DNA from: a virus
IMG/VR virus record: IMGVR_UViG_3300004481_000389
Direction: 5' to 3' (one strand)
Length of the DNA: 64,000 bases
Part shown: positions 535 through 51,880 of the stretch, one piece after another
Layout: each line of letters opens with the position of its first letter
Position numbering within the stretch: position 1 is the stretch's first letter
Notes under the pieces: model-generated
What the model was told of the DNA's origin: nothing
What the model saw: only the letters and a program-made list of their open reading frames with translations
Database searches by the model: none
Translations under genes and position numbers: made by a program

Positions 535-1089
535 TTATTTGTAAGGGCTTTCCTTTTTTGCGCGTACCTTCTTAAAGTGCTGGTTTACCAGGTCCCAGGC
601 CATATCTTTATTTTTTCGCACTCTTGCCCGGTTCTGATTCAGCTTTTTCATTGCCCAGGGCCGTTTTTTCGCAATAATGGTCCCTATCCTTTCCCAGTCC
701 TCACTTTTATCAGCTGCAGTGCGCCCATGCTCACCAAAAGCAGCAATCAGGGTCTTATTTGATGTGCTGCAATCAAACAGGCCTTGTAGCATTCTATGTG
801 CCAGGGTCGCCGTCATATCAAGCTCATATTCAATGGCCAGCGTATATAGGACCACAAGCATTAACCCTGCTTTACGCTTCCTGGACAAAATCGACCACTG
901 GGCCGCATGTTGTGGGTCCATAACGGCCATAGTGTCATGTAGATAACTTGGATCTGGTACCAGGGATTCATGATCGTATTTATGGTAATTGATCCGGTTG
1001 AAAATTAATTGTTCTGCATCTTTTGTGTAGTCTTGGAGACTATAGGGCTTATGCCTGGTGTAGAAGTCCCTCATTTTTTCAATATTCAT
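535..1089 (-). CDS. hypothetical protein with a basic C-terminus
   Basis: 184-aa ORF next to the partition cassette. No motif recognised. Confidence 0.5.
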   Translation of the reverse strand: MNIEKMRDFYTRHKPYSLQDYTKDAEQLIFNRINYHKYDHESLVPDPSYLHDTMAVMDPQHAAQWSILSRKRKAGLMLVVLYTLAIEYELDMTATLAHRMLQGLFDCSTSNKTLIAAFGEHGRTAADKSEDWERIGTIIAKKRPWAMKKLNQNRARVRKNKDMAWDLVNQHFKKVRAKKESPYK

Positions 1090-1217: not shown

Positions 1218-1430
1218 TTATGGAATGTCTTTAATACATTCATCAATCAGGCTGGTTAAATGGTCCTTCATGTTTAGTCTGTTTTGCGCCAGATAGATCT
1301 TATAGCGTCTGTGGCGATCCTCAGACAATACCAGGCTGCTACGCACGGTTGGACCTATATCCTTAATGCTTTCCAATTGCTGAGCTTTGCGTTTATCGCC
1401 CTGGTCCTTTTTGGATTTAATTTCTAACAT
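1218..1430 (-). CDS. parG: ParG-like ribbon-helix-helix centromere-binding protein (type Ib partition)
   Basis: 70 aa, downstream of parA. The segment VRSSLVLSEDRHRRYKIYLAQNRLNMKDHLTSLIDECIKD aligns by eye with my recollection of the TP228 ParG RHH core (KRVNVNFDEEKHTRFKAACARKG...). Confidence 0.7.
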   Translation of the reverse strand: MLEIKSKKDQGDKRKAQQLESIKDIGPTVRSSLVLSEDRHRRYKIYLAQNRLNMKDHLTSLIDECIKDIP

Positions 1431-1446
1431 TTAACATTCCTGGGTC

Positions 1447-1510
1447 ATGCACTTATGCGGTTATACACTTATACAATTATGCACTTATGCTATCAAGTGC
1501 ATAAGTGCAT
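1447..1510. repeat. array of eight phased 8-bp units (ATGCACTT / AAGTGCAT) between parA and parG
   Basis: TGCA-like cores at 1448, 1456, 1464, 1472, 1480 and 1488. Two inverted copies follow at 1498 and 1506. Confidence 0.8.
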
Positions 1511-1519
1511 ATATTTGAA

Positions 1520-2164
1520 TTAAGTCTTGTCTGAGAGGTATTTAGCTTTGATTTCTTCTGCTAGTTTCCAAGCGTCTTTAGCTGCATTGGAATTAGGTGC
1601 ATAGTCGTGAACAGTCAAACCTTTAGCAATTGATTTTGTGTAGTCGATGTACTGAAAAATAACTGTATCTAACACGGGTAGTTCATAGCCAGCCAAAACG
1701 CTAGAAACTTCTTTACCCAGTGACGTATTTGCAATTACACGAGATACCAGGAAAGTAGCCTTTAATTTTTCATCTGTAAGCTCGATACGTTGTTTAACCA
1801 TATCTACCAGGTCGGACGTTGCCCATATATCAAGTGGTGAAGGCTGGACTGGGATAATAACTAAATCGGATGCTTTAATTGCTGACGCGCTCATTTGTTC
1901 TAAAGAAGGTGCGCCGTCAATAATGACAATATCCATATTGGATAGAGATTTAATGTCTTTATGAATCGTTGGGCGGTCAATAGCGAAAACTGGCACCGGG
2001 TTATTTTCATCTACTTCCTTCCAGTCGCGGGCGCTACCTTGTGGATCTGAATCAACCAGGGCAACTTCCATACCCATTTTTTGAAAAGCACGTGCAAGAT
2101 TAAGTGAATTTGTAGTCTTACCAGCGCCGCCTTTTTGATTGAGCAAAGAGATAACAAAAGCCAT
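1520..2164 (-). CDS. parA: ParA/ParF-family partition ATPase (type Ib, small ParA)
   Basis: Deviant Walker A motif, LNQKGGAGKTT. 214 aa. DSDPQGS and IIDGAP motifs. Collinear with ParF as I recall it. Confidence 0.9.
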   Translation of the reverse strand: MAFVISLLNQKGGAGKTTNSLNLARAFQKMGMEVALVDSDPQGSARDWKEVDENNPVPVFAIDRPTIHKDIKSLSNMDIVIIDGAPSLEQMSASAIKASDLVIIPVQPSPLDIWATSDLVDMVKQRIELTDEKLKATFLVSRVIANTSLGKEVSSVLAGYELPVLDTVIFQYIDYTKSIAKGLTVHDYAPNSNAAKDAWKLAEEIKAKYLSDKT

Positions 2165-2264
2165 TTTTTAATTTCCAGTTTGATGATGAATCCATTGAAG
2201 TATAAGGCTTTACGTGCCTCTGTCAATAAAATAAAGGCCCAAAAATCAGCTATTTGTATATTTT

Positions 2265-2304
2265 AAGTGCATATACATTTATGCACTTATACATTTAAGT
2301 GCAT
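2265..2304. repeat. octamer array upstream of parA (AAGTGCAT-ATACATTT-ATGCACTT-ATACATTT-AAGTGCAT)
   Basis: Read directly. Units are in 8-bp register with alternating orientation. Confidence 0.75.
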
Positions 2305-2385
2305 TTTGTAGAAGTTTCATAGCCTGGGTGATTGATAGCTTTTTAATCTAATTATTTGATTTAATTAAAATCAATTTTATAAAAA

Positions 2386-2417
2386 GTGCATAACCGCATA
2401 AGTGCATGAGTGCATTT
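2386..2417. repeat. four tandem octamers (AGTGCATA ACCGCATA AGTGCATG AGTGCATT)
   Basis: Read directly in the parA upstream region. Confidence 0.75.
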
Positions 2418-2504: not shown

Positions 2505-3335
2505 ATGAAAACTGATTTAGTACAACCCCCATTGATCCGCTACAACCTCAAGGAACGTGGCAGACAATTTAGAGGGGTAGAACGTAATTTCGATATTCCG
2601 GCTATCGTTGCTGCTATCAATTCACCCGCTTGCCAGGAGAGAGTTAAAACCCGTGGCATGTTGGGATACCTGGGCCACTGGGTCCGTATTCGTTTTGGTT
2701 TAGAGCCGCCGGAAGGTGGGATTGCTCAAGGCAAGGCTTATGCTGTTGAGCCAGCCATTGTGACGACCTACCTTAAAGCATACCCAAACGGCGATATTGA
2801 GCATCAAACAGAATTTTTAGATACCGATCCAGGCCGTATTGCTGCGCGTATGTATGCAAACGAAGTCGGCGGCTTTAGTTCTGCCATCGATGAAAATAAA
2901 CCGACCTTTTACGGCTTTGACTGGGTGAATGATCCGAACTATTCAACCAATCGCGGGTACAGCTTGACCCTGGATAGCGTGGTAGAGGGTGGAATGACCC
3001 TAGATGATGTTTTGGCTGCTGAATTGCAAGATCGTACCCAAGCTATGAACATGCTTTTAGAGAGAAGCGAGTACCGTGAAAAACTAGCCCTGGATAGCGC
3101 CGTTGCCTTGCGTAATGAAAATGAGCAGCTGTTATCTCTATTGGCTGAGTACGACAAAAAATCAGATGCGCCAGAAGTGCCAATTTCAACCAATGAGGCC
3201 ACAATGCGTATGGAGCGTGATAAGGCGGTGTTTGATTCAGCTGGTATCTTACCAACCTTCAAAGAGCAAAGTAGCGAACAGGACAAGAAAGATGAACGTG
3301 CGTATCGATCAATTCGTTCAATGGTGGTTCGCTAA
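2505..3335 (+). CDS. virion morphogenesis protein, possibly a prohead protease/scaffold fusion
   Basis: The N-terminal ~170 aa carry His/Ser-containing segments (GYLGHW, GGFSSAI, FYGFDWVNDPNYS) reminiscent of HK97-type proteases. The C-terminus is coiled-coil-like. Weak call. Confidence 0.3.
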   Translation: MKTDLVQPPLIRYNLKERGRQFRGVERNFDIPAIVAAINSPACQERVKTRGMLGYLGHWVRIRFGLEPPEGGIAQGKAYAVEPAIVTTYLKAYPNGDIEHQTEFLDTDPGRIAARMYANEVGGFSSAIDENKPTFYGFDWVNDPNYSTNRGYSLTLDSVVEGGMTLDDVLAAELQDRTQAMNMLLERSEYREKLALDSAVALRNENEQLLSLLAEYDKKSDAPEVPISTNEATMRMERDKAVFDSAGILPTFKEQSSEQDKKDERAYRSIRSMVVR

Positions 3336-4084
3336 TGTTTGAGCCAGTTAAAATCGCTTTAGGTGAGTATCTGCAAGGCTTTTATAATGAGCTTGTGCCA
3401 ACTACGCCAGCGTTAAAAGAGTTCAAGAAGCGTGGCTTTTCGTATGGCTTTGTTTATGCGCCTAGCCGCCTGGTGGATCAGGCAAGTGACATGCTGGCCG
3501 CCTGGCAAAAAAACGATACCACGGGCAAGCCAACAACCCCGGCAAAGTTACCCGTGATTATTATCGGGATGGCGAAGGACTACACCCCAACCGGACGGGA
3601 TTTTAACTATCAAATTTCGGATAGCGTGGAAATCATGTTACCCGATGATGCCAAAGAGCGTTATTTTGAAGTTAAAACTATTGCGGGTGATTTGCGGGTC
3701 CAGCTGGTGATTTGTACGAGTGATGAAGCAACGGCGAAAAGTATAGCTGCTCAGCTGTTGTTATATGTGGATTCACCCGTGCGCCGTGGTTTTGATGCGG
3801 TTTATACATTCGCCAAAAATGATGTGAGATTCCCTTGCCAAATTGAGGCCCCGGATAGCCCGGCTTCAAGTGTGGATACAGGGAGTTCAAATGTCACAAT
3901 GCTGGCGATTGATTTTAATCTGCATTGCACGGTACCGCTTTATAGTGCGCCAGATGAGAATGAGCCGAACGATGGTAAAGGGTCCGGCCCTGATGATCCA
4001 AGTGGATTCCCGCTAGTGCAGCAAGTTAATCAAGAAGATCAAACGACTGTTAAAAACGGGCGTGATGTTGATGTGACTGATTAA
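3335..4084 (+). CDS. hypothetical virion-module protein
   Basis: 249-aa ORF whose start overlaps the upstream stop (ATGTTTGA context). Confidence 0.55.
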   Translation: MFEPVKIALGEYLQGFYNELVPTTPALKEFKKRGFSYGFVYAPSRLVDQASDMLAAWQKNDTTGKPTTPAKLPVIIIGMAKDYTPTGRDFNYQISDSVEIMLPDDAKERYFEVKTIAGDLRVQLVICTSDEATAKSIAAQLLLYVDSPVRRGFDAVYTFAKNDVRFPCQIEAPDSPASSVDTGSSNVTMLAIDFNLHCTVPLYSAPDENEPNDGKGSGPDDPSGFPLVQQVNQEDQTTVKNGRDVDVTD

Positions 4085-4452
4085 CACGGTCTGAGTGAGT
4101 GATGTTGTTTAAGTTCCTGGTACTCGATACGTTCATCGTAACGTCTACAGGCCTCGTTAAGTGTTTCGGCATTTAATGAGGCGATCCCCTCCATTAAATT
4201 ATCCGGTCTAATCAGGACTGCATCATATATTCCCATTGAATCCTTATAGATAACTTTAAGTGTGGCCAGGTTGTGATTGAGCTGGACCAATGAGGCTAAA
4301 ACATTGTGCATATCATTGGTGACACTTGTATTGCCCAGGTCTAAATCTTCAATAACCAGAAAGCCTGGATCTAGTAAAAAATACTTAAAATCTGCGGTAC
4401 CAAGCAAATTATTAATACCCTTTTTGGCTTTGGTTTTGTTCTGAAACTGCAT
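4081..4452 (-). CDS. hypothetical protein, antisense to the surrounding structural genes
   Basis: 123-aa ORF convergent with 3335-4084. Its upstream region is the octamer array at 4536-4676. Confidence 0.5.
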   Translation of the reverse strand: MQFQNKTKAKKGINNLLGTADFKYFLLDPGFLVIEDLDLGNTSVTNDMHNVLASLVQLNHNLATLKVIYKDSMGIYDAVLIRPDNLMEGIASLNAETLNEACRRYDERIEYQELKQHHSLRPC

Positions 4453-4535: not shown

Positions 4536-4676
4536 GTGCGTATAAGTGCAAAACTGCATAGCTGTATAGGTGCATAAGTGCAAGGTTGCATAGGTGCCAA
4601 TTTACCTTATCAATCTAGGCCAGGTGCATGAGTGCATAACTGCACGGGTGCAGAATTGCATAGGTGCATAACTGTG
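4536..4676. repeat. two blocks of about seven phased TGCA-core octamers
   Basis: Cores at 4547, 4555, 4563, 4571, 4579, 4587, 4595 and at 4625, 4633, 4641, 4649, 4657, 4665, 4673. A 30-bp gap separates the blocks. Confidence 0.8.
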
Positions 4677-4756
4677 TAGGCAGTATTGGAAAACCAAGTA
4701 AATCAGGCAAACAGGGCTAAATAGAATACCTCCATAGGCTCTATGGGAGTAAACAC

Positions 4757-5248
4757 ATGAAGCAAAAAATACAAGCGAATATACAAGGCTATAAAGGCCG
4801 GCCCGCTAGTTTGTTTGGATTGCATGACACTGAAACGAGTGTACTTGTTATTGCCAAACTATCCACAAAAAGAATGGACCCGCAACCTGGCTGTGCATTC
4901 ATTACCAATCAGTTAAGAACGGAACATGATTTCTATATAGATGAAACCAAGTTGCTTGATTCAATTTCAAGTTATTACCGACTTAAAAACGGTCTGGCCA
5001 AAAACAATGAGACAGCATTATTGCGAATTGACCCTAAAGCGGGGAATGCAGATCCATCAAGCGGCATTGAAATGGACGGCGTATCGGGGCGGGGGATGGA
5101 ATACCGTATTTCGCCTGACGTTACCAATGCACAAATCGCGCTGTTAGCTATGTGCTTGTATGTGGAAGGTTCATCCACGGTTAATGACACGCTGGAAATG
5201 TTCGATGAATTAGAGGCATTGATGGAAGGTAACTGGTTGACGATATGA
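4757..5248 (+). CDS. hypothetical virion-module protein
   Basis: 163-aa ORF with a GGAG-like RBS. Overlaps the next gene (ATGA). Confidence 0.55.
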   Translation: MKQKIQANIQGYKGRPASLFGLHDTETSVLVIAKLSTKRMDPQPGCAFITNQLRTEHDFYIDETKLLDSISSYYRLKNGLAKNNETALLRIDPKAGNADPSSGIEMDGVSGRGMEYRISPDVTNAQIALLAMCLYVEGSSTVNDTLEMFDELEALMEGNWLTI

Positions 5249-5589: not shown

Positions 5590-6638
5590 TGGTTGATGCA
5601 AGTGACCGTAAAATTGCCGGGTCCATAGGTCAAGCCAAAGCCAGGGCGCAAGCCAGCCAGGATAAGCGTGACAGTGCGCCAAATATCCTAACGCCTGGTG
5701 AGGTTCGCGGGGAATATGATGCTAACCGGATGCTTGAGACTACTCTAGGCGGGATCAAGCGAATTATGACGGCTGATGACCTGGCCGCATTTCGCCGTAA
5801 TGCAGCTATAGCCGGGAAAAGCTTTGTTGGTGGAATTACTGCCAGGCAAGTGATCGACCGTTCCTTGTCTACGGATCGAAAGCGGGCAAGACAGGAAATT
5901 CTATGGGCTATGCCAAGTCATGCCAATAAGAATCAGAAAGGCCATTTAGCTGTTAATTTCAATACTGATGCCTCTGGCCGCAATGATGCGTCTAGGCATT
6001 ATGTCCAGGTGGAATTTATAGGATTCCAGACAGCTATTGCATCCGGCGCTCATGCACCACAACGGGCGGCCCGTGAAATGGCTAAGGATAAGATCCGTTT
6101 TGACTGTGATTGTGGCCGTCATACCTACTTTTTGCGATACCTGGCCACGATTGGCAACTATAACTCTGGCCGATCCGAAACGGGCTACCCAAAAATACGA
6201 AACCCTAACCTGGTGGGCGTGGCATGTAAGCACGTTTTACGTGTAATGGCTGAAATTGAGGGCGGGGCATACGTGCTGCAATTCCTGGCCAGGGCTATTG
6301 AAAAGGCGCGTAAGGACAACGGCAAGGTACGCATTCAATCCAGCCAAAAAGAGGCAGATAAGCAAATCCAGAAACAAGCGGGCCGTTCTACAACCAAGCT
6401 TGATTCAAGAGAGGAACGTGATCTGCACCGGGCGCGCCTGGCGTTACGAAAATCGGCAGCTGCAGCACGGGTCAATATGCCAAAACCAAAAGTGACGGCG
6501 GGCGGTAGTCGCAAGATTGGCCAGCTGGGGAAACTTGGCCATAACAAAACCACGGAAACAATTTTGCTGCAAACGATCCAGGGCTTAGGCATTACCCGTG
6601 AACAAGCCATTGCCATGCTGGCGGGCCTAAAAAAATAA
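5589..6638 (+). CDS. SWIM-type zinc-finger protein
   Basis: CDCGRHTYF...VGVACKHVLRVM fits the CxC-x(n)-CxH pattern. The C-terminal third is basic. Confidence 0.55.
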   Translation: MVDASDRKIAGSIGQAKARAQASQDKRDSAPNILTPGEVRGEYDANRMLETTLGGIKRIMTADDLAAFRRNAAIAGKSFVGGITARQVIDRSLSTDRKRARQEILWAMPSHANKNQKGHLAVNFNTDASGRNDASRHYVQVEFIGFQTAIASGAHAPQRAAREMAKDKIRFDCDCGRHTYFLRYLATIGNYNSGRSETGYPKIRNPNLVGVACKHVLRVMAEIEGGAYVLQFLARAIEKARKDNGKVRIQSSQKEADKQIQKQAGRSTTKLDSREERDLHRARLALRKSAAAARVNMPKPKVTAGGSRKIGQLGKLGHNKTTETILLQTIQGLGITREQAIAMLAGLKK

Positions 6639-6659
6639 TCTAATTAGATTCTAATTAGA
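6639..6659. promoter_or_regulatory. two copies of the 10-bp palindrome TCTAATTAGA spaced 11 bp apart
   Basis: Copies at 6639-6648 and 6650-6659, upstream of the gene at 6703. Confidence 0.45.
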
Positions 6660-6702
6660 ATTTTTCGGGCCATTAATCTGCTAATCAAAAATAGGTTTAG
6701 AT

Positions 6703-7212
6703 ATGTTGAATAACATTCCAAAAGGCTTGAATGCCATTACTCGTAAGGTGGTGATCCGGCACCCCAACACATTTAATTGTGAATTTTACCGCCGTAATAC
6801 CAATCGTATTGAGCCAGTAGTGGGGGAGAGGCCCACAATTGGCGGCATGATGGTTATGTCTGTGGATGATGAAGTGGACATAAGCTGGTCCATGATCGGC
6901 ACCGGGTACGCTTTAGTCGCGGATCAATTCCAGCCGTCAACCATGATGGACCGCATGGATACCAACAACGGCAGCGGTGATGAATTTCGCTTTTTGATTG
7001 AATCTGAATTAGAGGCTTTTGAAGGCGGCTTTGAGCCAAAAAAGAACGATGTGTTTTATGTGGTCCTGGGAGATATTCAGGATGAAGATGCACCACGATT
7101 AGCTTATGAAATTATCGGGGTAGAAACGACCGTAAACGTGCCGCCTTATGTCCCACGTTATGTATGCAATCGCCGGGATGATCTAATGCCGCACATAATG
7201 ATGCAGCCATAG
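6703..7212 (+). CDS. hypothetical virion-module protein
   Basis: 169-aa ORF. Confidence 0.55.
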   Translation: MLNNIPKGLNAITRKVVIRHPNTFNCEFYRRNTNRIEPVVGERPTIGGMMVMSVDDEVDISWSMIGTGYALVADQFQPSTMMDRMDTNNGSGDEFRFLIESELEAFEGGFEPKKNDVFYVVLGDIQDEDAPRLAYEIIGVETTVNVPPYVPRYVCNRRDDLMPHIMMQP

Positions 7213-11991: not shown

Positions 11992-12879
11992 ATGTCTTTA
12001 TTTGATAAGGCAGCATCGGCGGTCAGTTCAGCTAAATCAGCTGGTACCAGTTTTATTAAGGACAAAATAAACGGGGTCGGCGGGGTGCGTGGTCTGGCCA
12101 CACTGGGCATTAACTCACTGATCAATCAGGCCTCCGCTATGGTCCTGGGTCCTGGTCCCTGGGATAACCTTAACCCCAACTTACTTGCGACCATTTATGA
12201 GGTGGACCATAACGGCCATATCATCCCTGGTACCGCAGTAATCCAGGCACCATTTTCAGAAGATGTAACCATTGAAGCAAGCTTGAACTGGCAAAGTCCT
12301 TTTGAGGGGGCGGGCGCAGAAAGCAAGGCCCCGGCGCTTATGTCTATGCTGCAATCCGGCGCATTCCAGCCACTTATTGACAGTATTGGCGGTAAAACTA
12401 AGGAGGTTTTGCAAAATACGGTAGATGAAGCCAGGGGAAGAACAGGTATTACCAAGTTGAACTCAACCCAGGTGTTTTCTGGTATGCCGCCTATGAAGAT
12501 CCAGGGCAATCTGATATTGCGCGCTTGGGAAAATCCAGTAAAAGAGGTCGAAAATCCACTTGATACTTTAATGAAGTGGTCATTGCCCTATTTCCTTGCG
12601 CCAGAAGGCACTTTGCTAAGTAATGCTGTGAATTTTGCTCAGGGAAATGGCAAGACTTTAATCGAGACAATCATGCCATCCGAAGCCCCGCCAATGGTTG
12701 CACTGACCTATAAGGGCCGTACTTATGGGCCGCTGGTGATTGAGAGTATTAACTTGCCGATAGGCAGTCCGGTTGATGTAAATGGTAACTTTACCAATAT
12801 GTTGATCCCGGTGACATTCTCAACATTAACTGCAATCGATGGTAATGACTGGATGAAATACAGTACAGCAGGTTTTTAA
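11992..12879 (+). CDS. virion (tail-module) structural protein
   Basis: 295-aa ORF after the sheath gene. Exact role not assignable. Confidence 0.5.
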   Translation: MSLFDKAASAVSSAKSAGTSFIKDKINGVGGVRGLATLGINSLINQASAMVLGPGPWDNLNPNLLATIYEVDHNGHIIPGTAVIQAPFSEDVTIEASLNWQSPFEGAGAESKAPALMSMLQSGAFQPLIDSIGGKTKEVLQNTVDEARGRTGITKLNSTQVFSGMPPMKIQGNLILRAWENPVKEVENPLDTLMKWSLPYFLAPEGTLLSNAVNFAQGNGKTLIETIMPSEAPPMVALTYKGRTYGPLVIESINLPIGSPVDVNGNFTNMLIPVTFSTLTAIDGNDWMKYSTAGF

Positions 12880-13631
12880 TGTTATTTATCCCGGTTTTAC
12901 GCACTGCACGTTTTACCCTGGCACTTAAAGAAATCGCCATGCTTAACGCTATTAAGCTGGCGAATATGCCCGAAAGCCAGGCAGAGCAGCAAACGACCTT
13001 TTTGATTAACGCAATTACTGAAAATGTCGAAGGTCTTGAGAATCCGCTTCATTGGACGGTTCAAGAAAGAATGCTTTGTGTTGGTCACTATATTGCGGCC
13101 ACACAGGATGAAAGCCCTGATTTTGCAATCGGTGAGGCTCGTTTCTCAAACTATCTTCAAGCCGAAAAGCAATACCAGCACGATATTTGTGATCTAGGTG
13201 AATATGAGGAAGATCATTGGACTGCAGTACCGTTACTGGGGGTGATGGCTGAAACCATTGAGCGCCTGGAAGGTGCCATCGAAGGCATTGAAAGCCGTAC
13301 ACACTGGTATTTAGGCTGCATGGCTTGTCAATTGATCCCGAACGGCGCAGCACTCGATTATGAAAGCCACAACTATGAAGCTCAGGTGCTTGAGCGCATG
13401 GTGGTGTTATCTCAAATACCTGAAACCAACTTTTTACACCTTATGGGTTTGCTGACCAAAGCACACCAATATTTTAACCATATCTTTGATATTGCCATTA
13501 CTGATGTTGGTATTGCTGTATTGCCGAGAGAGGGGGAGGCAGACTTGCCGTATGCCCGATTTCCAGCTCATACCGCAATCACAACAATATCGCAGCAGCT
13601 TAGTGGAAAATCTCACCTTTCTGGCTCATAA
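12879..13631 (+). CDS. hypothetical tail-module protein, possible assembly chaperone
   Basis: 250-aa acidic ORF. Its 3' end overlaps the ORF at 13486-13848, which is open in the +1 frame. Confidence 0.45.
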   Translation: MLFIPVLRTARFTLALKEIAMLNAIKLANMPESQAEQQTTFLINAITENVEGLENPLHWTVQERMLCVGHYIAATQDESPDFAIGEARFSNYLQAEKQYQHDICDLGEYEEDHWTAVPLLGVMAETIERLEGAIEGIESRTHWYLGCMACQLIPNGAALDYESHNYEAQVLERMVVLSQIPETNFLHLMGLLTKAHQYFNHIFDIAITDVGIAVLPREGEADLPYARFPAHTAITTISQQLSGKSHLSGS

Positions 13632-25043: not shown

Positions 25044-25403
25044 ATGAAAAGCCTTCAATCACTCGCTTTGACCCGAAAGGCTTTAAAGCTAATCGCAGAA
25101 AAAGCAACCACTAAAACCACGATGGCAGTTTTACGCTGGAATAAAGAGGCACTGGCTTTGCTAGGGCAAGCTTTTCCCAAAATTAAAACTGATGAATCGA
25201 ATCCTGATTACCAGTATTTGCAGTCTGTAATTAAACGCGAATTACCCAATATGAATGACCCCGATATTGGCAATCGCATGACAGACATTCTTAACCGAAA
25301 TTCAGAAAACTCGGCATTCCTTTCGTATGTGCAACAAGCCGTTGCTGCATACCGCGAAGCCTTGCTTGCTGCATCCACTCAATTTTTATGGGGTAACGCT
25401 TAA
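25044..25403 (+). CDS. small protein, paralogue 2 of the putative adaptor/chaperone
   Basis: The ATG at 25044 has a GGAG RBS; the track TTG is at 25029. Its stop overlaps the start of the 2242-aa gene (TAATG). Confidence 0.5.
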   Translation: MKSLQSLALTRKALKLIAEKATTKTTMAVLRWNKEALALLGQAFPKIKTDESNPDYQYLQSVIKRELPNMNDPDIGNRMTDILNRNSENSAFLSYVQQAVAAYREALLAASTQFLWGNA

Positions 25404-28400
25404 TGTTTGGCATTTTATTCGATGATGCTGGCAATCCTAAATTGACCACACAGGCGCTTGAGCTTACTAGCAAGCTGCAAAATATTGTTGATAGCCTCAA
25501 AACGCCACAAAATAGCCTAGAAGGCCTTTTGTCTGAAATTGGCACTATCACACGTGGTAATCACTTAATTGCGGATTTGAAGCAATTAGGCGGCAATATC
25601 GGCGGTGTTTCATTGCAAATTAATGATGATCCAGCAATTCCATTGTCAAAACCACGTAAAAAGACGGATCAGCACTACAATTTCCAGCAAAACAACACAA
25701 AGAACAAACGCCAAAAGGACAACATTGCGGCGGTGGAATTGGTGCGCCAATACAATGCGGGTGAAATCACTTTAGATTCCATTACCGATGAGCAAAAAGA
25801 CATTTTAGGCCGATACACCGGGAACGGCGGCAACTTGCTCGATGTGGAAACAGGTATGCGCGGCTCAGACTATGAGTATTACACGCCTAAGCCTATTGCT
25901 TCTGGTATTTGGGACGTTCTAAATGATATGGGCTTTGGTGGCGGTAAAGTGCTGGACCCATGCGCTGGTGTAGGTATTTTTGGTGCTACTGCACCATTAA
26001 ATGCGGCTATTGATGCTGTAGAGCTGGATAAGACTAGCGGCACGATCAATAAGCTGATTAATGAATCAGACAGCTATAACGTGCGTGTAAGTAATTTTGA
26101 GAGTGTGGCAGCGCGTACACCAGATGAATCATACGATGCCATTGTGGCTAACGTTCCATTTGGTAGTAATCGCGGTCGTAACTTCAAATACGATGAAAAA
26201 TACCAGAAAGCTAGTCTTGAGTATTACTTCATCATGCGTTCCCTGGAAAAGCTTAAAGGCGGTGGCTTGGCTGCATTCCTGGTACCGGATCGCTGCATGA
26301 CAGGCAAATCAAGTAAAGAACGTGCATTGCGCCAGGATTCAAGCCTACTGGGTGAATTTTTGGGAGCGTATCGCTTGCCTAACAAAGTATTTGGCGCTGC
26401 AGCAGCAGATACCATTACTTGTGTGATGTTCTACCGCAAACATAGCAAAGCGGCTTTAGAGAAGGTCAGCGACCTCTATTCTGGTGGTGAAGCTAAGACG
26501 CTTTCTGATGCTCAAGTGCTATGGGATTCATTTGTTGATGGCAAATACTTTGAAACCAGCGAAGGTAAAAAGCGCGTCCTGGGTGATGACTTCATCAAAG
26601 CAGAGGAAGGCGATAAATACGGGCGTGATCAACTAACTTCTAGTGAAGATATTTTGGCAATCGCTAAGCGTATGCTGGTTCACAAATTGCCGAAAACCCG
26701 TATTGACTGGGCTTTGCTGGATGAAACCGAAGCTTTCCCAATTTCTTACAATGAAGGCGATACCATTACCCAACGTGGCCAGACTTTGCAGCTGGTGAAT
26801 GGTAATTGGGTCGTATTGAATCCAAGCCCTGAAAACAACGCAAAAATGGACCTGCTAAGTGATGCACAGGACCCATACAGTGCTTTTGTTTCCAATATTA
26901 CGATTGAACAGGTCGATGAATTAGCCGACCACATGAAAAAAATGTCTATGGCGCTGGATATGCCGCCGTGGATGGGTCAAATGCGTGTTGCTTTGGCGGG
27001 TGGTAAAACCCTGGACCAACGCAAGCAGCTTTACAAGCCAATCCTGATTGGTATGTGTGTAAAGCAGATCATGGATGAGGAAGGGCTAGATTCAGGCACC
27101 AACTTCAAAGAGAAATACCAGGATCTATCGGCTGAAATGGAGCGTTACGCCTCAGATGCCAATAAAGTGAAAGGTGTTGAAGGTGAAGCGAAGCTTGCAA
27201 TCCTGGAATACAAAAAGCATTACAAGAAAGGGACCGGATTTAGCTCAATTTGGCTTGGTGAAATTCGCCAGGTAACAGAAGTTGAAATGACCCCGGACGC
27301 AAGCCTGGACGGCGTGATTTATGTGAATAAATCGCCGTGGTTCACTGTTGAACAGGCTAGAGCCTCACTTGGTCCAGACTTTGACCCATTTAAGGACCCT
27401 GAATACTGCCTATCTGATGATGGCAATAAAATCTGTCGTTCTGATGATTACTATGTTGGCAACCTGGGTGAGTTTTTAAAGCGGATCGATCCGGCAATTG
27501 AAAATGCAGCCAATGATTCAATCCGAAATAAGCTACTGGCACAGAAAAAGGCGGCGTTTGAACGTGTGACTAAGATCGATGTTCAAGAAATGCACTTCAA
27601 CCTATTTTCGCCATACGTGACGATTGAAGAAAAAGCAGAGTTTTTGCGCCGTTCCGTACATGCCAGTGCGCGTGTGGTTGATGTTGATGGTGAAAAAACA
27701 ATTTCATTCAACGTAACTTCATCGGAAAAGGATAAAAACAATCGTGCCAAGTACATTGGCCGCCTGGAAAGCTATTTGAAGCATGGCAATGTCTCCTTGC
27801 AGGGCATTAAAATCGAAGGTATTTCTGAGGAAAAGCAGCTCGAAGAACTCCGAAGCTTTATCAACAAAACCAACGATAAATTTAATAGCTATGTGCGTTC
27901 TAATACCAGGATTACTAACCGCCTAGAAAGTACGGCAAACGATCCTAAAAACATGCGTTTTAAGCAGCTTGAAGATACTAAGGACTTGATTGTTCAAGGT
28001 ATGAATCCAGAGCTTAAATTGCACACGTATCAACGCGCTTTCGTGCGTAAAATGTCGCGTGATTTCAGCGGTATCAATGGCTTTGATGTGGGCTTAGGTA
28101 AAACCTTTACGGCACTTGCATCGGTCCAATACGTGCAGTCTATTGGCGTTAAAAAGCGCACTATGTTTGTGGTCCCAGGATCGGTGCTATCAAACTGGCG
28201 TAAAGAAGCATTGCGGGCATATAAAACGATTGATGATTGTTTGTTTGTGGGCTTGCGTGAAAACGGTGATGGCAACCTAATTGCTGATTCCAAGTATTAC
28301 GATGAAGATTTAATGTCGATTGTGAGCAACAAGCCGAATAAGATTTTTATCAGCTTTGAAGCTTTTGAGCGCATTAAATTAAAGGCTGAAACTATTGAGC

Positions 28401-31400
28401 ATTTTGAGAATCATATTCGCTCGGTTGATGCCTCGTTTATGGAAGATGATAGCCGTAAAAATGAGGAAAAAACCCAGGCGAAACTTGAAGGCCTAACCGC
28501 TATTTTGTCGAAAAAGACAGGCGCGGCACCTTATCTTGAGCAATTGGGGATTGATTCAATCGTGATTGATGAAGCCCATGCTTATAAAAACTCAAGTGCT
28601 GTGCGTGAATTTAAGGGCGGTAAATACCTATCAACCGCTGGCATGTCTGGCCGTGGTATCGATGCACAATGTAAGGCCTGGTTTATCCGTGGTATGTCGG
28701 ATCGTAAAGACGGCGTATTGCTACTGACTGCTACCCCGATTACCAATAGCCCGCTTGAAGTCTATTCAATGATGAGCCTGGCGGTTGGCCATGAGCGCGT
28801 GAACAGTTTAGCTATGGGTGTATCTGGTGCTGATGACTTCATGAATGCTGTGTGTGTCATGGAAGATGAACAGGAAGAATCTATCGATGGCCAAATGAGT
28901 AACAAGCGTATCTTTAAAGGCCTAAGTAACCCGGCAATGTTACGCAATCTTATTTCTGATGTGGCCACAATTAAAACCGCCGATGATGTAGGCGCGCAAA
29001 TCGTGGTACCAGATGAAGATACTCAAGAAACGATAGTAACGCTTGATAAGTATTCCCAGGATAAGCTGGATACTTATAAGAATGCCTATCGCTATGCTAT
29101 GGACCTGATCCGTGACCGTGCTTTGCCATTTGGCCCAGGTGTGGCGGCGTATGATTACGTTAAGCAGCAATTTGGTGAAAAGGACGATGTAATCGCGCAT
29201 CCATTTAACTTGATCAATAAAATGACGATGTTAATTGCCGATCCTGACCTGGATAAGCAATACACCAAGTACGTGATTGGCCAGGACCAAAAAGAGGCAC
29301 TTGATAAGGTTCTAGCTGAGTGGGATAAGAAGCGACCTAAAGAGGACCGTGGCCGTATTAGCCCGCATACTCAAGAAAGCGATTACTCCTTAAAGATCAA
29401 GAAGAACAAGGATACAGGTGAGGAAACAGCGATTTATACAATTCAGGTTCGCGCCTGGGCTGATAATGCCAATGTTTACCTGGATTCTACCGACTGGAAA
29501 ACACAAGAAGCATTCGAGACGCTGGCCGAAAAACACGGACTAGGCCTGGATTGCGTCATGTCTCCAAAAATGGCCGCTATGATCGATAACCTCAAGCGTG
29601 AAAACTCGCATGTTCGCGGTGTGAATGCTCAAGGTGAAAAAGCGCCGTATGCGAAACAGATTGTTTTCTGTGACATTTTGGGTATCCACAACAAAATGCG
29701 TAAGTTGATCGCTAAGCATTTAGGTGTTTCAGCAAGCCAGATCGCTATTGTGACCGGACAGCGAAATAATGATGCAGCTGAAATTTTGGAGATTCAAAAT
29801 AACTTCAATGATTATGGTGAAGATAACTATCGCATCATCATTGCCAACAAGAAGGCCGAAGTCGGTATTAACTTGCAAATCGGTACTCAGGCAATTCATC
29901 ACTACACAATTGGCTGGACCCCGGATAGCTTGCAACAACGTAACGGTCGCGGTGTGAGACAGGGCAACAAGACAGAAAAAGTAACTGTGTATCATTATGA
30001 CGCGCAAGGTACTTTTGATGCAGCTAAGCGCACCCTGGTAAACAATAAAGCTGACTGGATCGGTGAGCTGATGGACGGTCAAGGTTCTGAGAGCATTAAG
30101 ATTGTAGGCGGTATGTCCAATGAGCAGATCCGGGCGCTGGCTGAATTTGCGGGCGGTGATGCTTTAGAAGCCATGCAAGCCGAAATTGCACGTAATGAAA
30201 AAATGCGTCATGAAAAGGAAAATGTGGAGCGTCAAAAAGCATTACTTGAGACGGCAAAACAGCAACAAGACTTTCTTGATAAGAACAAGGATTTTTCAGG
30301 ATGGGTTAAACGTGACTTTGATGCTTTGATGCAAACCGCCTCAAGTGTCGGCAAGCTGGAACGTTTAATCAAAAAAGAAAATGATCTTAAAGCTGATCTA
30401 GCTGAAATCGTAGCAAGTAGTGGCTCAGTGAAGGACGTACAAGCCAAACTGAACAATATTGAGAAATCAAAACTCAAGCTTGAAAACGAAATGCGCCAGG
30501 CGAATAAGCTAATGGCTCGTATTGCCGGGGCGGTAAATGCGGTAGTTGCAAATTACAACTTTGAGCAAATTGCACCAGATAAAGCAGCGTATGTGATCAA
30601 TAAAAAGTTCCGTGAACGTGCTGAACAGCCACATTCTAAGGCCACACTTACAGATACTTTTTATGATCATGAAGATGGTGTGCGTTATGGCGTAAAAGTG
30701 AAGGCTAAGGAGGAAGTGGAAGGCTCAGAACTTTACAATGAGTGGAGCTTTGAGGTTGATTCTGCAGCTGGCTTGATCCGTGAAACGGTGAAGCAATTTA
30801 AAGAACGTGCGAAGGTTGATAATTCAATCAATGAGCGCGTGATTGATGACTTTATCGGTGAAGATCGAAATGGCCAGATTAGCCCGTCCGGTGTTTTATT
30901 TTCAAAGTCTTGTTTCCTGGTGAAAAACAACGACCCTAAACAAGCGGTTTATTACTTTACAGGTGTGCCACAAGAAAATCAGTATGGTTCTAAAATTAAG
31001 GGCTTGATCAATGGTGAAAGGACCGATACTGAATTTAACTATGATTTTGTAGATCAACCTGAGTACAGCGTGGCTTATCCTGATTCTGATTTATATACGC
31101 AGTGCTGCATTGCCCTGGCTGAATATGAAGATTCATTGGTAGGCACCGTTTCCACTAAAGAAGGCAACCTATTTAGTGATGTTATGCCGGATATTTTGAA
31201 ATATCGTAAGGGTATTATCGAAATCGCTTTTGAGTACGCTAACAGCTACTTGCAGGGCCACTATTACCCATACGTGATGAATGCACATGAGCCAGATAAA
31301 TTGAGCGATTTTGAGAAAGCAGTTGTTAAACAGCAATCAGAAATCGTATTGAGACATACGAAATATCATTTCTATGTATTGGCTGAAAATGAGCATTTAA

Positions 31401-32131
31401 TTACCAAAAATCGCCCGACCATTGGTAATAAAACCGCAGTGATCCGTGACTTTTGTTTAGCCAATAACTTTAAGGCCAGTGTTTCTGATATTCCGGTATC
31501 TTTTAAACTGTCTGTTGAATTGGCGAATTACATTCGAGAAGGTGATGCTAAGGATCGATTATTTACCTTTATTGACCGGGCAAAATTTGAGACGGTGGCT
31601 GCATTCCGTGAAGCTTTGGCCCAGGTGGTATGTGATGAATTTACACCGTTTATTCATGATATGGAGCCGGATACGTCAATCATGCTGGACGTAGTAGATC
31701 GAGTTTATGAGGTGAGTAATATCTATCGCACTAAACAAGCTGAAATTCTGGCAATTGAGAAAGCAGCTCAAGCGATTAATGCACCGGAAGTACAAGAGCC
31801 TCAGCCGATTGATGTGACGATCCATGAGCCGGATATAGAGCCTGGTGCTATTCCAAAAACTGCAATCATCCGTGTGGAGACTAACGGCTTTAATACTTTG
31901 CCGTATCGTGAAAAATTCCGGGAATATTCGGATGAGATTCAAAATGCGACAAGTTATGCTAAACCTGATCATTGGTCGAAGTACAATAAGCGTTTTAGCA
32001 ATGCCTCCGCTTGTTGGAATAAACCGCTTAAACAGTGGGAAATTCCATACGGTGCATGGCAGCTATTCGAGCAGCGTGATAGCGAACTGACAGATGCTTG
32101 CACATTCACAGTAATTTATGGCGGGGTTTAA
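25403..32131 (+). CDS. 2242-aa N6-adenine methyltransferase plus SNF2-type helicase fusion (P1 DarB-like)
   Basis: Methyltransferase motif I VLDPCAGVGIFG (aa ~183) and motif IV IVANVPFG (aa ~248). Helicase motifs are GLGKT (aa ~897), VIDEAHAYKN, LLLTATPITN and QQRNGRGVRQGN. Confidence 0.75.
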   Translation: MFGILFDDAGNPKLTTQALELTSKLQNIVDSLKTPQNSLEGLLSEIGTITRGNHLIADLKQLGGNIGGVSLQINDDPAIPLSKPRKKTDQHYNFQQNNTKNKRQKDNIAAVELVRQYNAGEITLDSITDEQKDILGRYTGNGGNLLDVETGMRGSDYEYYTPKPIASGIWDVLNDMGFGGGKVLDPCAGVGIFGATAPLNAAIDAVELDKTSGTINKLINESDSYNVRVSNFESVAARTPDESYDAIVANVPFGSNRGRNFKYDEKYQKASLEYYFIMRSLEKLKGGGLAAFLVPDRCMTGKSSKERALRQDSSLLGEFLGAYRLPNKVFGAAAADTITCVMFYRKHSKAALEKVSDLYSGGEAKTLSDAQVLWDSFVDGKYFETSEGKKRVLGDDFIKAEEGDKYGRDQLTSSEDILAIAKRMLVHKLPKTRIDWALLDETEAFPISYNEGDTITQRGQTLQLVNGNWVVLNPSPENNAKMDLLSDAQDPYSAFVSNITIEQVDELADHMKKMSMALDMPPWMGQMRVALAGGKTLDQRKQLYKPILIGMCVKQIMDEEGLDSGTNFKEKYQDLSAEMERYASDANKVKGVEGEAKLAILEYKKHYKKGTGFSSIWLGEIRQVTEVEMTPDASLDGVIYVNKSPWFTVEQARASLGPDFDPFKDPEYCLSDDGNKICRSDDYYVGNLGEFLKRIDPAIENAANDSIRNKLLAQKKAAFERVTKIDVQEMHFNLFSPYVTIEEKAEFLRRSVHASARVVDVDGEKTISFNVTSSEKDKNNRAKYIGRLESYLKHGNVSLQGIKIEGISEEKQLEELRSFINKTNDKFNSYVRSNTRITNRLESTANDPKNMRFKQLEDTKDLIVQGMNPELKLHTYQRAFVRKMSRDFSGINGFDVGLGKTFTALASVQYVQSIGVKKRTMFVVPGSVLSNWRKEALRAYKTIDDCLFVGLRENGDGNLIADSKYYDEDLMSIVSNKPNKIFISFEAFERIKLKAETIEHFENHIRSVDASFMEDDSRKNEEKTQAKLEGLTAILSKKTGAAPYLEQLGIDSIVIDEAHAYKNSSAVREFKGGKYLSTAGMSGRGIDAQCKAWFIRGMSDRKDGVLLLTATPITNSPLEVYSMMSLAVGHERVNSLAMGVSGADDFMNAVCVMEDEQEESIDGQMSNKRIFKGLSNPAMLRNLISDVATIKTADDVGAQIVVPDEDTQETIVTLDKYSQDKLDTYKNAYRYAMDLIRDRALPFGPGVAAYDYVKQQFGEKDDVIAHPFNLINKMTMLIADPDLDKQYTKYVIGQDQKEALDKVLAEWDKKRPKEDRGRISPHTQESDYSLKIKKNKDTGEETAIYTIQVRAWADNANVYLDSTDWKTQEAFETLAEKHGLGLDCVMSPKMAAMIDNLKRENSHVRGVNAQGEKAPYAKQIVFCDILGIHNKMRKLIAKHLGVSASQIAIVTGQRNNDAAEILEIQNNFNDYGEDNYRIIIANKKAEVGINLQIGTQAIHHYTIGWTPDSLQQRNGRGVRQGNKTEKVTVYHYDAQGTFDAAKRTLVNNKADWIGELMDGQGSESIKIVGGMSNEQIRALAEFAGGDALEAMQAEIARNEKMRHEKENVERQKALLETAKQQQDFLDKNKDFSGWVKRDFDALMQTASSVGKLERLIKKENDLKADLAEIVASSGSVKDVQAKLNNIEKSKLKLENEMRQANKLMARIAGAVNAVVANYNFEQIAPDKAAYVINKKFRERAEQPHSKATLTDTFYDHEDGVRYGVKVKAKEEVEGSELYNEWSFEVDSAAGLIRETVKQFKERAKVDNSINERVIDDFIGEDRNGQISPSGVLFSKSCFLVKNNDPKQAVYYFTGVPQENQYGSKIKGLINGERTDTEFNYDFVDQPEYSVAYPDSDLYTQCCIALAEYEDSLVGTVSTKEGNLFSDVMPDILKYRKGIIEIAFEYANSYLQGHYYPYVMNAHEPDKLSDFEKAVVKQQSEIVLRHTKYHFYVLAENEHLITKNRPTIGNKTAVIRDFCLANNFKASVSDIPVSFKLSVELANYIREGDAKDRLFTFIDRAKFETVAAFREALAQVVCDEFTPFIHDMEPDTSIMLDVVDRVYEVSNIYRTKQAEILAIEKAAQAINAPEVQEPQPIDVTIHEPDIEPGAIPKTAIIRVETNGFNTLPYREKFREYSDEIQNATSYAKPDHWSKYNKRFSNASACWNKPLKQWEIPYGAWQLFEQRDSELTDACTFTVIYGGV

Positions 32132-45053: not shown

Positions 45054-46277
45054 ATGTCTTTGACTGATAAACACGTTCGCCAGGCCCCACCAAAAGATAA
45101 AATCTATTTTTTAAGTGATGATGATGGGCTAAGCCTCAAAATAGAGCCGACCGGATTAAAAACTTGGTGCTATCGCTATACCGATCCAGTCACAAAAAAA
45201 CGGGCAAGAAAAAGCCTGGGCTATTATCCAGAAATGCAGCTCAAACAAGCCAGGAATGAAAGGGACCATAAAAAAGCTTTTTTGCATATTCATGGTATTT
45301 GGGAGGGGGATGAAGTTAAAGCCAGTACCTTATTATTTTCTGATGTGGCGAATGAATGGCTAAATTTTAAAGTTAAAAATAGCCTGGGGGATAATCCTCG
45401 TTGTGGGGTTTTATCACTATCAAAAAGATGCCTGGATAATGATATAAATCCGGTTATTGGTGAAATCCCATTTAATGAGGTTAAACGAAAGGACCTGGTT
45501 AATGTGATCCGTAAAATAGAGGAACGGGGAGTAAAAGAGCCAGTTAAAAAGGCATGTAGTTATTTAAGCCAGATTTATGATTATGCCGTGGCAATTGGTT
45601 ATTCTGATTTTAATATTGCGCTTAATTTAAACAAAGTATTAATTAAATCCAAAATTAAAATAAATTACCCATATTTAAAAGATAGTGAGTTAGGCGATTT
45701 TATTAAATCACTCACTGGTTATAATGCCGATCCAATTATTAAAAAGGCACTATGGTTGAAGCTTTATACTGGTGTGCGTGGTGCTGAATTAATCCAGGCA
45801 AAAGCAGAGCATTTCGACCTGGATAACAAGCTTTGGAGAATCCCGGCAATTCACGTAAAACAATTACGGCGTAAGGCTTTGATGGGTGTCGATGTTCCTG
45901 ACTACTTGGTGCCTTTATCCGATCAAGCCATTGAGGTTGTAAGATCTGCTTTGGATTGGTCCCACGGTGAACGGTATGTTTTTGCTAGTCCTAGAAAGGT
46001 CGGCCAGCATATACATTTTAATTCTATTAATACATTAATTCGCCGTATGGGGTACGATAAAAATAAATTATCTTCACATGGTTTACGTTCAACCATGAGT
46101 ACAATTTTAAATGATTCTGGATTATTTAAAAGTGAATGGATTGAAGCTCAATTATCACATTCGGATAAAGACCAGACCAGGGCAAGTTATAACCATGCTG
46201 AATATATAGGACAGCGTTTAGAAATGATGCAATGGTGGGGGGATTATCTTCATAATCTGCCTACTCAAAATAAATAA
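45054..46277 (+). CDS. int: tyrosine integrase, P4-like family
   Basis: N-terminal LTDKHVRQAPPKDKIYFLSDDDGLSLKIEPTGLKTWCYRY (DUF4102-type). Catalytic segments GVRGAEL, HGLRST and a C-terminal Tyr. Confidence 0.9.
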   Translation: MSLTDKHVRQAPPKDKIYFLSDDDGLSLKIEPTGLKTWCYRYTDPVTKKRARKSLGYYPEMQLKQARNERDHKKAFLHIHGIWEGDEVKASTLLFSDVANEWLNFKVKNSLGDNPRCGVLSLSKRCLDNDINPVIGEIPFNEVKRKDLVNVIRKIEERGVKEPVKKACSYLSQIYDYAVAIGYSDFNIALNLNKVLIKSKIKINYPYLKDSELGDFIKSLTGYNADPIIKKALWLKLYTGVRGAELIQAKAEHFDLDNKLWRIPAIHVKQLRRKALMGVDVPDYLVPLSDQAIEVVRSALDWSHGERYVFASPRKVGQHIHFNSINTLIRRMGYDKNKLSSHGLRSTMSTILNDSGLFKSEWIEAQLSHSDKDQTRASYNHAEYIGQRLEMMQWWGDYLHNLPTQNK

Positions 46278-46308: not shown

Positions 46309-46338
46309 AAAAAAAGGCCCATTTAAGGGCCTTTTTTT
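46309..46338. terminator. bidirectional terminator
   Basis: A-run, GGCCC-attta-GGGCC, then T7. Confidence 0.8.
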
Positions 46339-51768: not shown

Positions 51769-51823
51769 ATGATCCAATCATATTTAAACGATTCATGTAA
51801 ATCAAGCGGTTTTTGAATTATTT

Positions 51824-51859
51824 TGCACTTATGCAGTTATGCACCTATGCACTTATGCA
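51824..51859. repeat. five perfectly phased TGCA-core octamers
   Basis: TGCA at 51824, 51832, 51840, 51848 and 51856. Lies between the cI terminator and the leftward-operon promoter region. Confidence 0.8.
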
Positions 51860-51880
51860 CCTAAATTAAGCTATAGGCAC

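Follow-up and report, generated by a model that had tools for sequence, protein, structure and literature searches.

What a small partition cassette surrounded by strictly phased short repeats is doing among the genes of a phage is the question raised by positions 1218-2417 of the IMG/VR virus record IMGVR_UViG_3300004481_000389, analysed here as a stretch of 64,000 nucleotides (the window). The cassette comprises a small ParA ATPase and a protein of 70 amino acids with a predicted ribbon-helix-helix (RHH) domain, and the repeats around it are arrays of the octamers AAGTGCAT/ATGCACTT. The answer considered probable is that a phage-plasmid of Acinetobacter, about 78.5 kb in size and with P1-like structural genes and a Rep_3 replicon, has here its type Ib, ParF/ParG-like partition module; the binding of the boxes by the small protein and partition itself are what we infer in this answer. 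An original prediction, made from the letters and a list of their open reading frames (ORFs), had described a ParF/ParG-type cassette with centromere or operator arrays, arguing for plasmid-like maintenance of a prophage. Its overall interpretation is supported, with the amendments given below.

The partition cassette and its repeat arrays

Both genes of the cassette lie on the minus strand. The parA gene (1520-2164) encodes 214 amino acids without an N-terminal helix-turn-helix (HTH) domain, and the N-terminus of its product, MAFVISLLNQKGGAGKTT, holds the Walker A motif K11-G-G-A-G-K-T17. The parG-like gene (1218-1430) encodes the 70-amino-acid protein, formed by a basic tail (residues 1-25) and an RHH domain (residues 26-70), which is the candidate centromere-binding protein. 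A sigma-70-like promoter is predicted at 2226-2199 (TTGACA, a spacer of 16 bp and TATACT, with 11 of 12 consensus matches), and an intrinsic terminator, GCCCCGAAAGGGGC followed by TTTTT, is placed directly 3' of the parG stop codon (1213-1200). The order promoter, parA, parG and terminator is that of a single operon and is the same in all relatives; the -10 element and the leader are conserved among them and the terminator is kept in all those compared.

The best match of ParA among solved structures was ParF of plasmid TP228 (4dzz), with E=1e-27 over residues 4-196. The protein also passed the NCBIfam family NF041546 ParA_partition with 248.9 bits against a cut-off of 180 (E=3e-74, residues 4-204) and matched PHROG 164, a ParA-like family, with E=5.5e-47. 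The features of type Ib were all identified: the small size, the lack of an HTH domain and the KGGxxGK[ST] motif with its signature lysine. The small ParA with a deviant Walker box that had been proposed at the outset is therefore confirmed by its KGGAGKT motif and is ParF-like both by structure match and by NCBIfam. It is classed as a ParF-like type Ib partition ATPase, for which nucleoid binding and stimulated ATPase activity are predicted.

The 70-amino-acid protein belongs to a family that is more difficult to place. Close homologues were 12, including one of Acinetobacter proteolyticus, and an exhaustive profile search enlarged the family by 15 short and more distant proteins. A family profile of 9 sequences ranked ParG first with E=0.068, and a profile of 21 sequences (A2) matched ParG (1p94) with E=7.5e-7, positions 7-78 of the profile corresponding to ParG residues 3-74; the next matches of the latter profile were other RHH proteins, namely 56B, E73, ParD and omega. 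The Pfam family ParG (PF09274) was matched by 8 of the 21 members (best E=7e-7), and no match to the 70-amino-acid protein was identified in NCBIfam. Its nearest plasmid homologues sit in parA-parG cassettes, and a plasmid homologue annotated as ParG is 36.7% identical to it. The protein is thus placed with ParG remotely, at the level of superfamily or remote family and not as a member by Pfam threshold. It is the only one of its kind in the window, where a search with the family profile matched 1218-1430 and found no second ParG-like ORF.

The AlphaFold2 monomer of this protein has an extended segment at residues 24-36 and helices at 37-49 and 54-66, with a predicted local distance difference test score of 82-94, preceded by an N-terminus of low confidence that is described as disordered and basic. 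This layout is predicted to be that of an RHH fold minus its intermolecular ribbon. Three polar residues of the beta-strand that putatively face the DNA, T28, R30 and S32, do not vary within the close family, nor does the core of the box. In distant members no evidence was obtained for co-variation of beta-strand residues and box, the close family simply conserving both; the loci of P0014 and P0015, sought for this comparison, were not found among viral or metagenome contigs, and in the plasmid homologue cassettes of Leptospirillum and Halomonas neither TGCA nor clear 8-bp arrays were seen.

Three arrays surround the par genes. Array A (1447-1510) is located between the parA stop and the parG start and consists of 8 contiguous octamers, six in one orientation and two inverted (<<<<<<>>), ending 16 bp ahead of the parG ATG. 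Array B (2265-2304) has 5 octamers (><<<>) upstream of the par promoter. Array C (2384-2415), of 4 direct octamers, is found where parA and a gene for 276 amino acids (2505-3335) diverge, in the intergenic DNA that separates them, and is 96% complementary to the first 26 nucleotides of array A. The coordinates first given for A and B are exact, whereas those for C (2386-2417) were displaced by 2 bp. In each array every unit begins exactly 8 bp after the previous one, so that the strict 8-bp phasing originally described holds inside the arrays, in chains of 8, 5 and 4 units; it does not hold between them, A, B and C being out of phase with one another.

The exact octamer AAGTGCAT occurs 14 times in the 64 kb, 9 of them within 1447-2407, against 3.9 expected window-wide, and shuffled sequences never reached 14. 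With the pattern RANNGYAT on either strand, which was derived post hoc from the units of A-C themselves, only these three arrays form chains of at least 2 units at 8-bp spacing in the whole window, and the longest simulated chain was 2 (300 Markov simulations of the window and 2000 simulations of local composition). Tandem Repeats Finder independently reported a period of 8 with the same consensus at A and C, leaving B unreported. Three such chains, of 8, 5 and 4 units in exact register, greatly exceed what chance would give.

The repeat unit has a simple anatomy. Across the 17 units that make up A-C, A at position 2, G at 5, A at 7 and T at 8 are invariant. An A also occupies position 1 in 15 of the units, position 6 takes C or T, and degeneracy is confined to positions 3-4. 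The resulting matrix, AA-nn-G-Y-AT, can be described as a degenerate 4-bp box nnGY (GTGC) and a near-invariant A/T spacer, ATAA, which is TTAT on the opposite strand. The box is centred in the octamer and therefore the box centres are 8 bp apart even across the flips of orientation. When all 37 units of the window are taken (arrays A-F, the last three being described below), the best-conserved core is T-G-C-A, so that TGCA, the label of the original prediction, is a fair name for the box. The spacers of arrays D-F are less purely A/T than those of A-C.

The locus was compared in six lineages: the window, L001 (A. proteolyticus), L002, L012, L014 and L015. Their ParA proteins are 61-81% identical and the flanking DNA has diverged, and box arrays were identified in all six, both upstream of parA and in the gap of 69-125 bp between parA and parG. 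The intra-operon array, which had been singled out as unusual, is real and conserved in these diverged lineages. In L002 the gap contains 8 direct units, versus 2 inverted and 6 direct in the window, number and phase being kept and the sequence not; the layout of array B is also retained in L002 though its units have changed. A hairpin in array A (1478-1511) was considered as terminator or attenuator and rejected, being present only on the non-coding strand and absent in L002 with its direct units. A conserved promoter internal to the operon near array A could not be established.

The lineages differ in how the boxes stand to the par promoter. In L001, L012 and L014 the -35 element TTGAAG overlaps a box, TTGAAGTGCA(T/G), and is followed by a 17-bp spacer and TATA[AC]T, which is the classic placement of a putative operator. 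The window and L002 have another promoter segment, of about 40 bp, that sets array B 38 bp upstream of TTGACA. Beyond the terminator, an ORF of 184 amino acids without family match is found at 535-1089 (minus strand), and an ORF of 177-184 amino acids is kept at this position in most relatives, not in L001.

Two types of ParA were distinguished, and the N-terminal tail of the ParG-like protein shows the same split, whereas its RHH domain follows a different tree. Between the window and L002 the RHH domains are 100% identical and the tails 32%. The co-split of tail and ParA, behind which stand few recombination events, fits a contact between tail and ParA with an independent DNA-binding module. 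ParG and omega have this arrangement, and it is predicted for the 70-amino-acid protein. Modular evolution can thus be seen at this locus, the ParA type travelling with the ParG tail and the RHH domain with the boxes. A related observation was made in L002-L005, whose backbones are 97-98% identical to the window and which carry a swapped module relative to positions 1361-1659 of the window. This module has another parA allele (ParA 68% identical), another array A and another ParG tail, the RHH domain and arrays B and C being retained, and it looks like a recombination inside parG at the boundary of tail and RHH domain.

The element and its further arrays

The window contains genes for a tail sheath, a baseplate, PmgG/PmgB-like head proteins, Hdf/DarB-like proteins, a CI-like repressor, RecET-like proteins and a lambda-O-like replication protein. 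The set of tailed-phage structural and lysogeny genes is complete, as expected of a phage-plasmid. Adding 14,471 bp closes the window into a circle of about 78.5 kb by way of L027, which is 98.4% identical to the window and 100% to L009, and loci starting from the right-end gene of the window run through a methylase operon into the same Rep_3 region. The Rep_3 gene (PF01051) was identified 1.2-2.4 kb beyond window position 1 in L007-L011, which are 98.8-99.5% identical. In L009 it occupies 12610-13554 and is accompanied by 22-bp iterons, ATTAGTAGACATTTACCGTGCT, in 4.9 copies, with further copies closer to the rep start (12097-12202 and 12385-12499).

Stand-alone contigs of 77.1-79.7 kb with varied break points were found in IMG/VR, in many metagenomes and in two assemblies of isolates, GCA_037027975.1 and GCA_002835245.1, and in more than 90 index blocks no chromosomal junction and no contig above 80 kb was identified. 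The circular map, the Rep_3 gene with its iterons and the lack of chromosomal flanks support plasmid-like maintenance, and the contigs would also be consistent with replicating or virion DNA. The plasmid-like maintenance originally proposed for a prophage is in agreement with the circle of about 78.5 kb and with the Rep_3 gene of the 99% identical relatives, but phage-plasmid is a better term for this element than prophage.

The hosts given in the records are Acinetobacter. Metagenomes with the element, from wastewater and other sources, number in the dozens, and it is also present in the two isolate assemblies. Nucleotide searches of phage and plasmid collections with the par region and the first 25 kb gave no match beyond a weak one to parA (65-68%). 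Sheath proteins of Xanthomonas phage Rb1 and of an Ideonella plasmid share 54-57% identity with that of the element, those of Burkholderia and Pseudomonas plasmids of 81-114 kb 37-43%, and that of P1 23%. A RepB initiator is present in one of these plasmids, pBVIE05. This is an uncharacterised and widespread lineage of probable Acinetobacter phage-plasmids, with no relative at nucleotide level in the collections searched. For Acinetobacter genomics it means that contigs of about 78 kb with tail genes are to be flagged as probable plasmids and not as integrated prophages.

The O-like replication gene (53048-53929) contains four internal 23-bp iterons, GGGTATCCGCAAAAATGCGGAGG, at 53389-53480, followed by a 12-bp repeat in 3.2 copies at 53482-53519. 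Iterons inside an O-like initiator gene are the arrangement of a putative lambda-type ori, and the element seems to have two replicons, the O-like one and the Rep_3 one outside the window. Other features of the phage genome were recorded along the map. A giant ORF of 2242 amino acids (25403-32131, plus strand) is found within the structural block, and the product of 18218-19243 matches PHROGs of the Hdf/DarB-like antirestriction and endolysin types. A gene for an Adhesin_E-like lipoprotein (46337-46732, minus strand; Pfam E=7e-9) adjoins the integrase gene discussed below. Finally, a pentanucleotide repeat AAACG, with 12 copies and 81% match (58683-58743), lies in a multi-HTH ORF of 330 amino acids (58432-59424), and in this coding sequence it could cause slippage frameshifts or phase variation.

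The three arrays of the original prediction are present but were an incomplete list, for D, E and F were also identified in the window. A scan for TGCA repeated at 8 bp revealed them; in simulated sequences such clusters averaged 0.04 per 64 kb. Array D (4536-4599) has 8 direct octamers of the AAGTGCAA/AGGTGCAT type and lies 24 bp upstream of a weak promoter-like site of a 123-amino-acid ORF (4081-4452, minus strand). Array E (4622-4677) has 7 direct octamers and lies about 80 bp upstream of a 163-amino-acid ORF (4757-5248, plus strand), the first gene of the baseplate/tail block, with which the 123-amino-acid ORF shares the divergent intergenic region that holds both arrays. The 5 direct octamers of array F (51823-51862) separate the CI-like repressor gene, which has its stop at 51922, from the operon of a 110-amino-acid gene and RecT/RecE-like genes, and lie 17 bp upstream of a weak promoter-like site; the ORF at 51241-51642 has 133 amino acids and the gene called there 110.

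Arrays were also identified outside the window. In near-identical relatives an N6/N4 DNA methylase operon is preceded by an intergenic region of 930 bp, which contains, about 4.5-5.1 kb past window position 64000, arrays of 5 and 6 units with 8-bp phasing (L027 15028-15067 and 15552-15599; L011 19730-19777). Near the Rep_3 promoter of L009 (12468-12491) there are three phased units, CCGTGCAT AAGTGCAT AGGCGCAT, interleaved with iteron copies; being only three they are a weak hint that the ParG-like protein may also act at the rep promoter, like omega at copS. Every array found is intergenic, and those of the window are six, of 4-8 units, in four intergenic regions.

The further arrays are kept among relatives and change by whole units. 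Array D is maintained upstream of the homologous ORF in L002, L009, L012 and L014. In L001 the D/E region (6580-7040) is almost wholly formed by phased ATGCACTT-like boxes over about 500 bp, and this expanded region is the best candidate for a main centromere, if any single site is the main one. Array E is exactly 16 bp, or two units, shorter in L009. Array F shows substitutions only at unit positions 1-3 in near-identical relatives, and one additional 8-bp unit in L025. The changes are thus of entire units (+8 bp, -16 bp) together with substitutions outside the TGCA core.

Possible roles of the arrays

In the mechanism proposed, dimers of the RHH protein would insert the beta-ribbon T28-V29-R30-S31-S32 into the major groove of the 4-bp box (GTGC). 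One dimer per octamer is expected because the boxes recur at 8 bp with A/T spacers, and the dimers would coat the arrays cooperatively in either orientation. The coated arrays, all of at least 4 contiguous units, would serve as centromeres, where the basic N-terminal tail would recruit and stimulate nucleoid-bound ParA, so that the plasmid copies would be positioned. The same complexes would be operators, by which the par genes would be autoregulated both at their promoter and in front of parG. Array A could work as a roadblock or as an operator inside the operon, through which the amount of ParG is adjusted relative to that of ParA; if this is true, it would set the ParA:ParG ratio. That the protein binds the boxes with this stoichiometry, acts at centromeres and represses is what we infer.

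The double role of centromere or operator, proposed at the beginning for the par locus, is kept for that locus as a probable one. The arrays beyond it lead further, because their dispersion suggests an omega-like regulon of many sites that reaches rep and the phage operons. Omega-like control is probable for the 123-amino-acid ORF and tail block and for the RecET block, and outside the window for the methylase operon and rep. A stronger form of this idea makes the ParG-like protein the hub of a genome-wide circuit, a partition protein that controls the par, Rep_3 copy control, baseplate/tail, RecET and methylase operons while its arrays, counted as at least 8 with more than 45 boxes, double as dispersed centromeres. 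We regard this stronger form as tentative, and on balance rather unlikely. If true, it would be a regulon of the omega/KorB style in a phage, with plasmid maintenance coupled to the decision between lysis and lysogeny. The dispersed arrays in any case make a testable prediction, which is that the partition protein also regulates phage operons.

Several observations weigh against a ParF/ParG-like partition module in a phage-plasmid. The 70-amino-acid protein alone did not match ParG (PF09274) in Pfam at E<=0.1; its sole Pfam match was Omega_Repress (E=0.026, 15.2 bits, below the cut-off of 33.3), and as a single sequence it matched TP228 ParG (1p94) with a non-significant E=1.1. The resemblance to TP228 ParG that had been noticed in the sequence hence stands by profile and not by the single sequence, and the significant match needs a profile with distant members, where profile drift is possible. 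The AlphaFold2 monomer has the two helices and no strand was called, which is attributed to the ribbon forming only in the dimer; a Foldseek search of the PDB with this monomer gave no meaningful match and was uninformative for a protein of such small size, whose ribbon only a dimer can form. The distant family member of L032/L033, which is P0017-like, has neither an adjacent parA nor obvious arrays. In the lineage of the window array B is placed upstream of the par -35 hexamer and not over it, the promoter-like sites by D and F are weak and no commoner than in shuffled sequences, and a clear overlap of box and promoter was identified only at the par promoter of L001, L012 and L014, the other promoter calls being weak. 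Finally, Rep_3 is known from relatives only and lies outside the window, and a tyrosine integrase gene of the arm type (P4/lambda-like) is located mid-map at 45054-46277 (plus strand), between the tail-fibre block and the early genes.

Some of these points might suggest that the small RHH protein is a transcriptional repressor only, the arrays being operators and ParA using another site or being dispensable. The arrays are all intergenic and most of them lie just upstream of promoter-like sites or gene starts, a distant family member stands without parA, and the best Pfam match is the omega transcriptional repressor. Characterised RHH arrays, however, perform both functions, as OF does (PMC3130281) and as do the parS sites of omega that overlap promoters (PMC9499535), and in every relative the gene shares its transcription unit with a bona fide partition ATPase, the tail co-varying with the ParA type. 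A repressor without partition function is accordingly held to be improbable.

A second possibility is that the phased TGCA boxes are bound by a different phage or host factor and that the 70-amino-acid protein recognises something else. The arrays far from the par genes (at 4.5 kb, at 51.8 kb and outside the window) would agree with this, as would the several uncharacterised small ORFs that adjoin arrays, for example the 123-amino-acid one. Against it, contiguous repeats of 7-8 bp in either orientation are the known binding mode of RHH dimers of the ParG/omega type, and three arrays hug the gene in all lineages, with no second ParG-like ORF found in the window. Of the other regulators identified, one is a CI-like HTH protein that has an S24 peptidase domain, one is Cro-like by the annotation of near-identical relatives, and the rest are further HTH proteins; regulators of these classes bind longer dyad operators. 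A factor other than the ParG-like protein has in consequence a somewhat lower probability than a mere repressor.

The integrase raises the question whether the element is an ordinary integrating prophage in which par is a passenger or remnant, the 78-kb contigs being virion or replicating DNA. Its mid-map position is lambda-like, the second, lambda-O-like replication gene with internal iterons points in the same direction, and headful-packaged phage DNA also gives circularly permuted contigs. On the other side, a Rep_3 initiator with its own iterons stands beside the par operon in all relatives, the two isolate assemblies have the element as a separate contig of 77-78 kb, no chromosomal junction or larger contig appeared in the index blocks searched, and the par genes are intact and conserved across lineages down to 61% identity. 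We consider an ordinary prophage very unlikely, and the integrase may rather belong to a phage-plasmid that switches between episomal and integrated states. The weakest alternative, that the arrays are replication iterons or origin elements of the plasmid replicon, could invoke short direct repeats in AT-rich intergenic DNA and the few boxes by the Rep_3 promoter of L009, but it was rejected as hardly conceivable, since Rep_3 has its own, unrelated 22-bp iterons and the O-like gene its 23-bp ones, the intergenic regions with arrays number five or more and lie far apart, and an architecture of 8-bp units in both orientations is not known for iterons.

Comparison with known partition systems

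The closest likeness of the probable partition module is to parFGH of TP228. The centromere of that plasmid is formed by degenerate ACTC tetramers with 4-bp AT-rich spacers, in agreement with the tetramer boxes and spacers given for it in the original prediction. The boxes are 20 in all, of which OF has 8 and parH 12, they occur in both orientations, and OF is at once an operator and a proficient centromere in which inversions are tolerated (PMC3130281). Both systems have a small ParA without N-terminal DNA-binding domain, ParF being the best structure match, and a downstream RHH protein of about 70-76 amino acids with a flexible N-terminal tail, and in both the 4-bp boxes and 4-bp AT-rich spacers give a period of 8 bp with direct and inverted units. 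The differences are several. The box here is GTGC/TGCA and not ACTC, as had also been noted originally, and the similarity of the proteins is remote, being not significant for the protein of the window alone. In TP228 all boxes are upstream of parFG, whereas here one array is between parA and parG and at least three more are elsewhere. TP228 is an enterobacterial resistance plasmid and this element an Acinetobacter phage-plasmid.

The dispersion of the arrays finds its counterpart in pSM19035, where the copS, delta and omega promoters are provided with six separate parS arrays, each of 7-10 heptads, and where the omega protein needs at least 4 contiguous repeats for the activation of ParA (PMC9499535). 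All six arrays of the window reach this threshold of omega. In the proposal the two are alike in having an RHH protein that binds centromeres and acts as global repressor, although here the regulation is only expected from the position of the arrays. In both, short repeats follow one another without gaps, in either orientation, and form several arrays that stand apart, those of omega overlapping the par and copy-control promoters, and Omega_Repress is the only Pfam match of the protein of the window. A T-V-R motif in the beta-strand is common to omega and the 70-amino-acid protein. Unlike pSM19035, the period is 8 bp and not 7 bp and the unit is AAGTGCAT and not the heptad WATCACW; the hosts are Gram-negative, the ParA is ParF-like and not delta-like, and the targets would include phage operons.

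With known phage-plasmids the element has in common that a temperate phage would be kept as a low-copy plasmid through a system of the ParA type. The phages VP882, vB_VpaM_MAR, VHML and phiHAP-1 have a small ParA that is 43-46% identical to that of the window, and P1 is distantly alike in its structural genes (PmgG, PmgB, Hdf/DarB-like and sheath). A precedent for dispersed sites in a phage-plasmid is N15, with several separate centromere sites, IR1-4 (PMC7205306). The ParAB-parS system of P1 and SopAB of N15 are unlike the present one, being of type Ia with a large HTH protein, ParB or SopB, and palindromic sites. The centromere sites of N15 affect late gene expression. N15-like phages are linear plasmid prophages, unlike this element, which is circular with a Rep_3 replicon. 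The Acinetobacter phage-plasmids of the 'AB' group have about 110 kb (PMC7969092), and the element described here differs from them with its 78 kb or so.

The gain over these systems is modest, for TP228 and pSM19035 already lead one to expect the mechanism, and it is textbook knowledge that RHH centromere binders can have phased short repeats at several promoters. The element adds a compact example of RHH-type partition, in which the code of box and spacer can be read directly from the approximately 37 units of the window, and what is new with respect to the known systems is the box itself, the conserved though unusual array inside the operon and the arrays dispersed over the genome.

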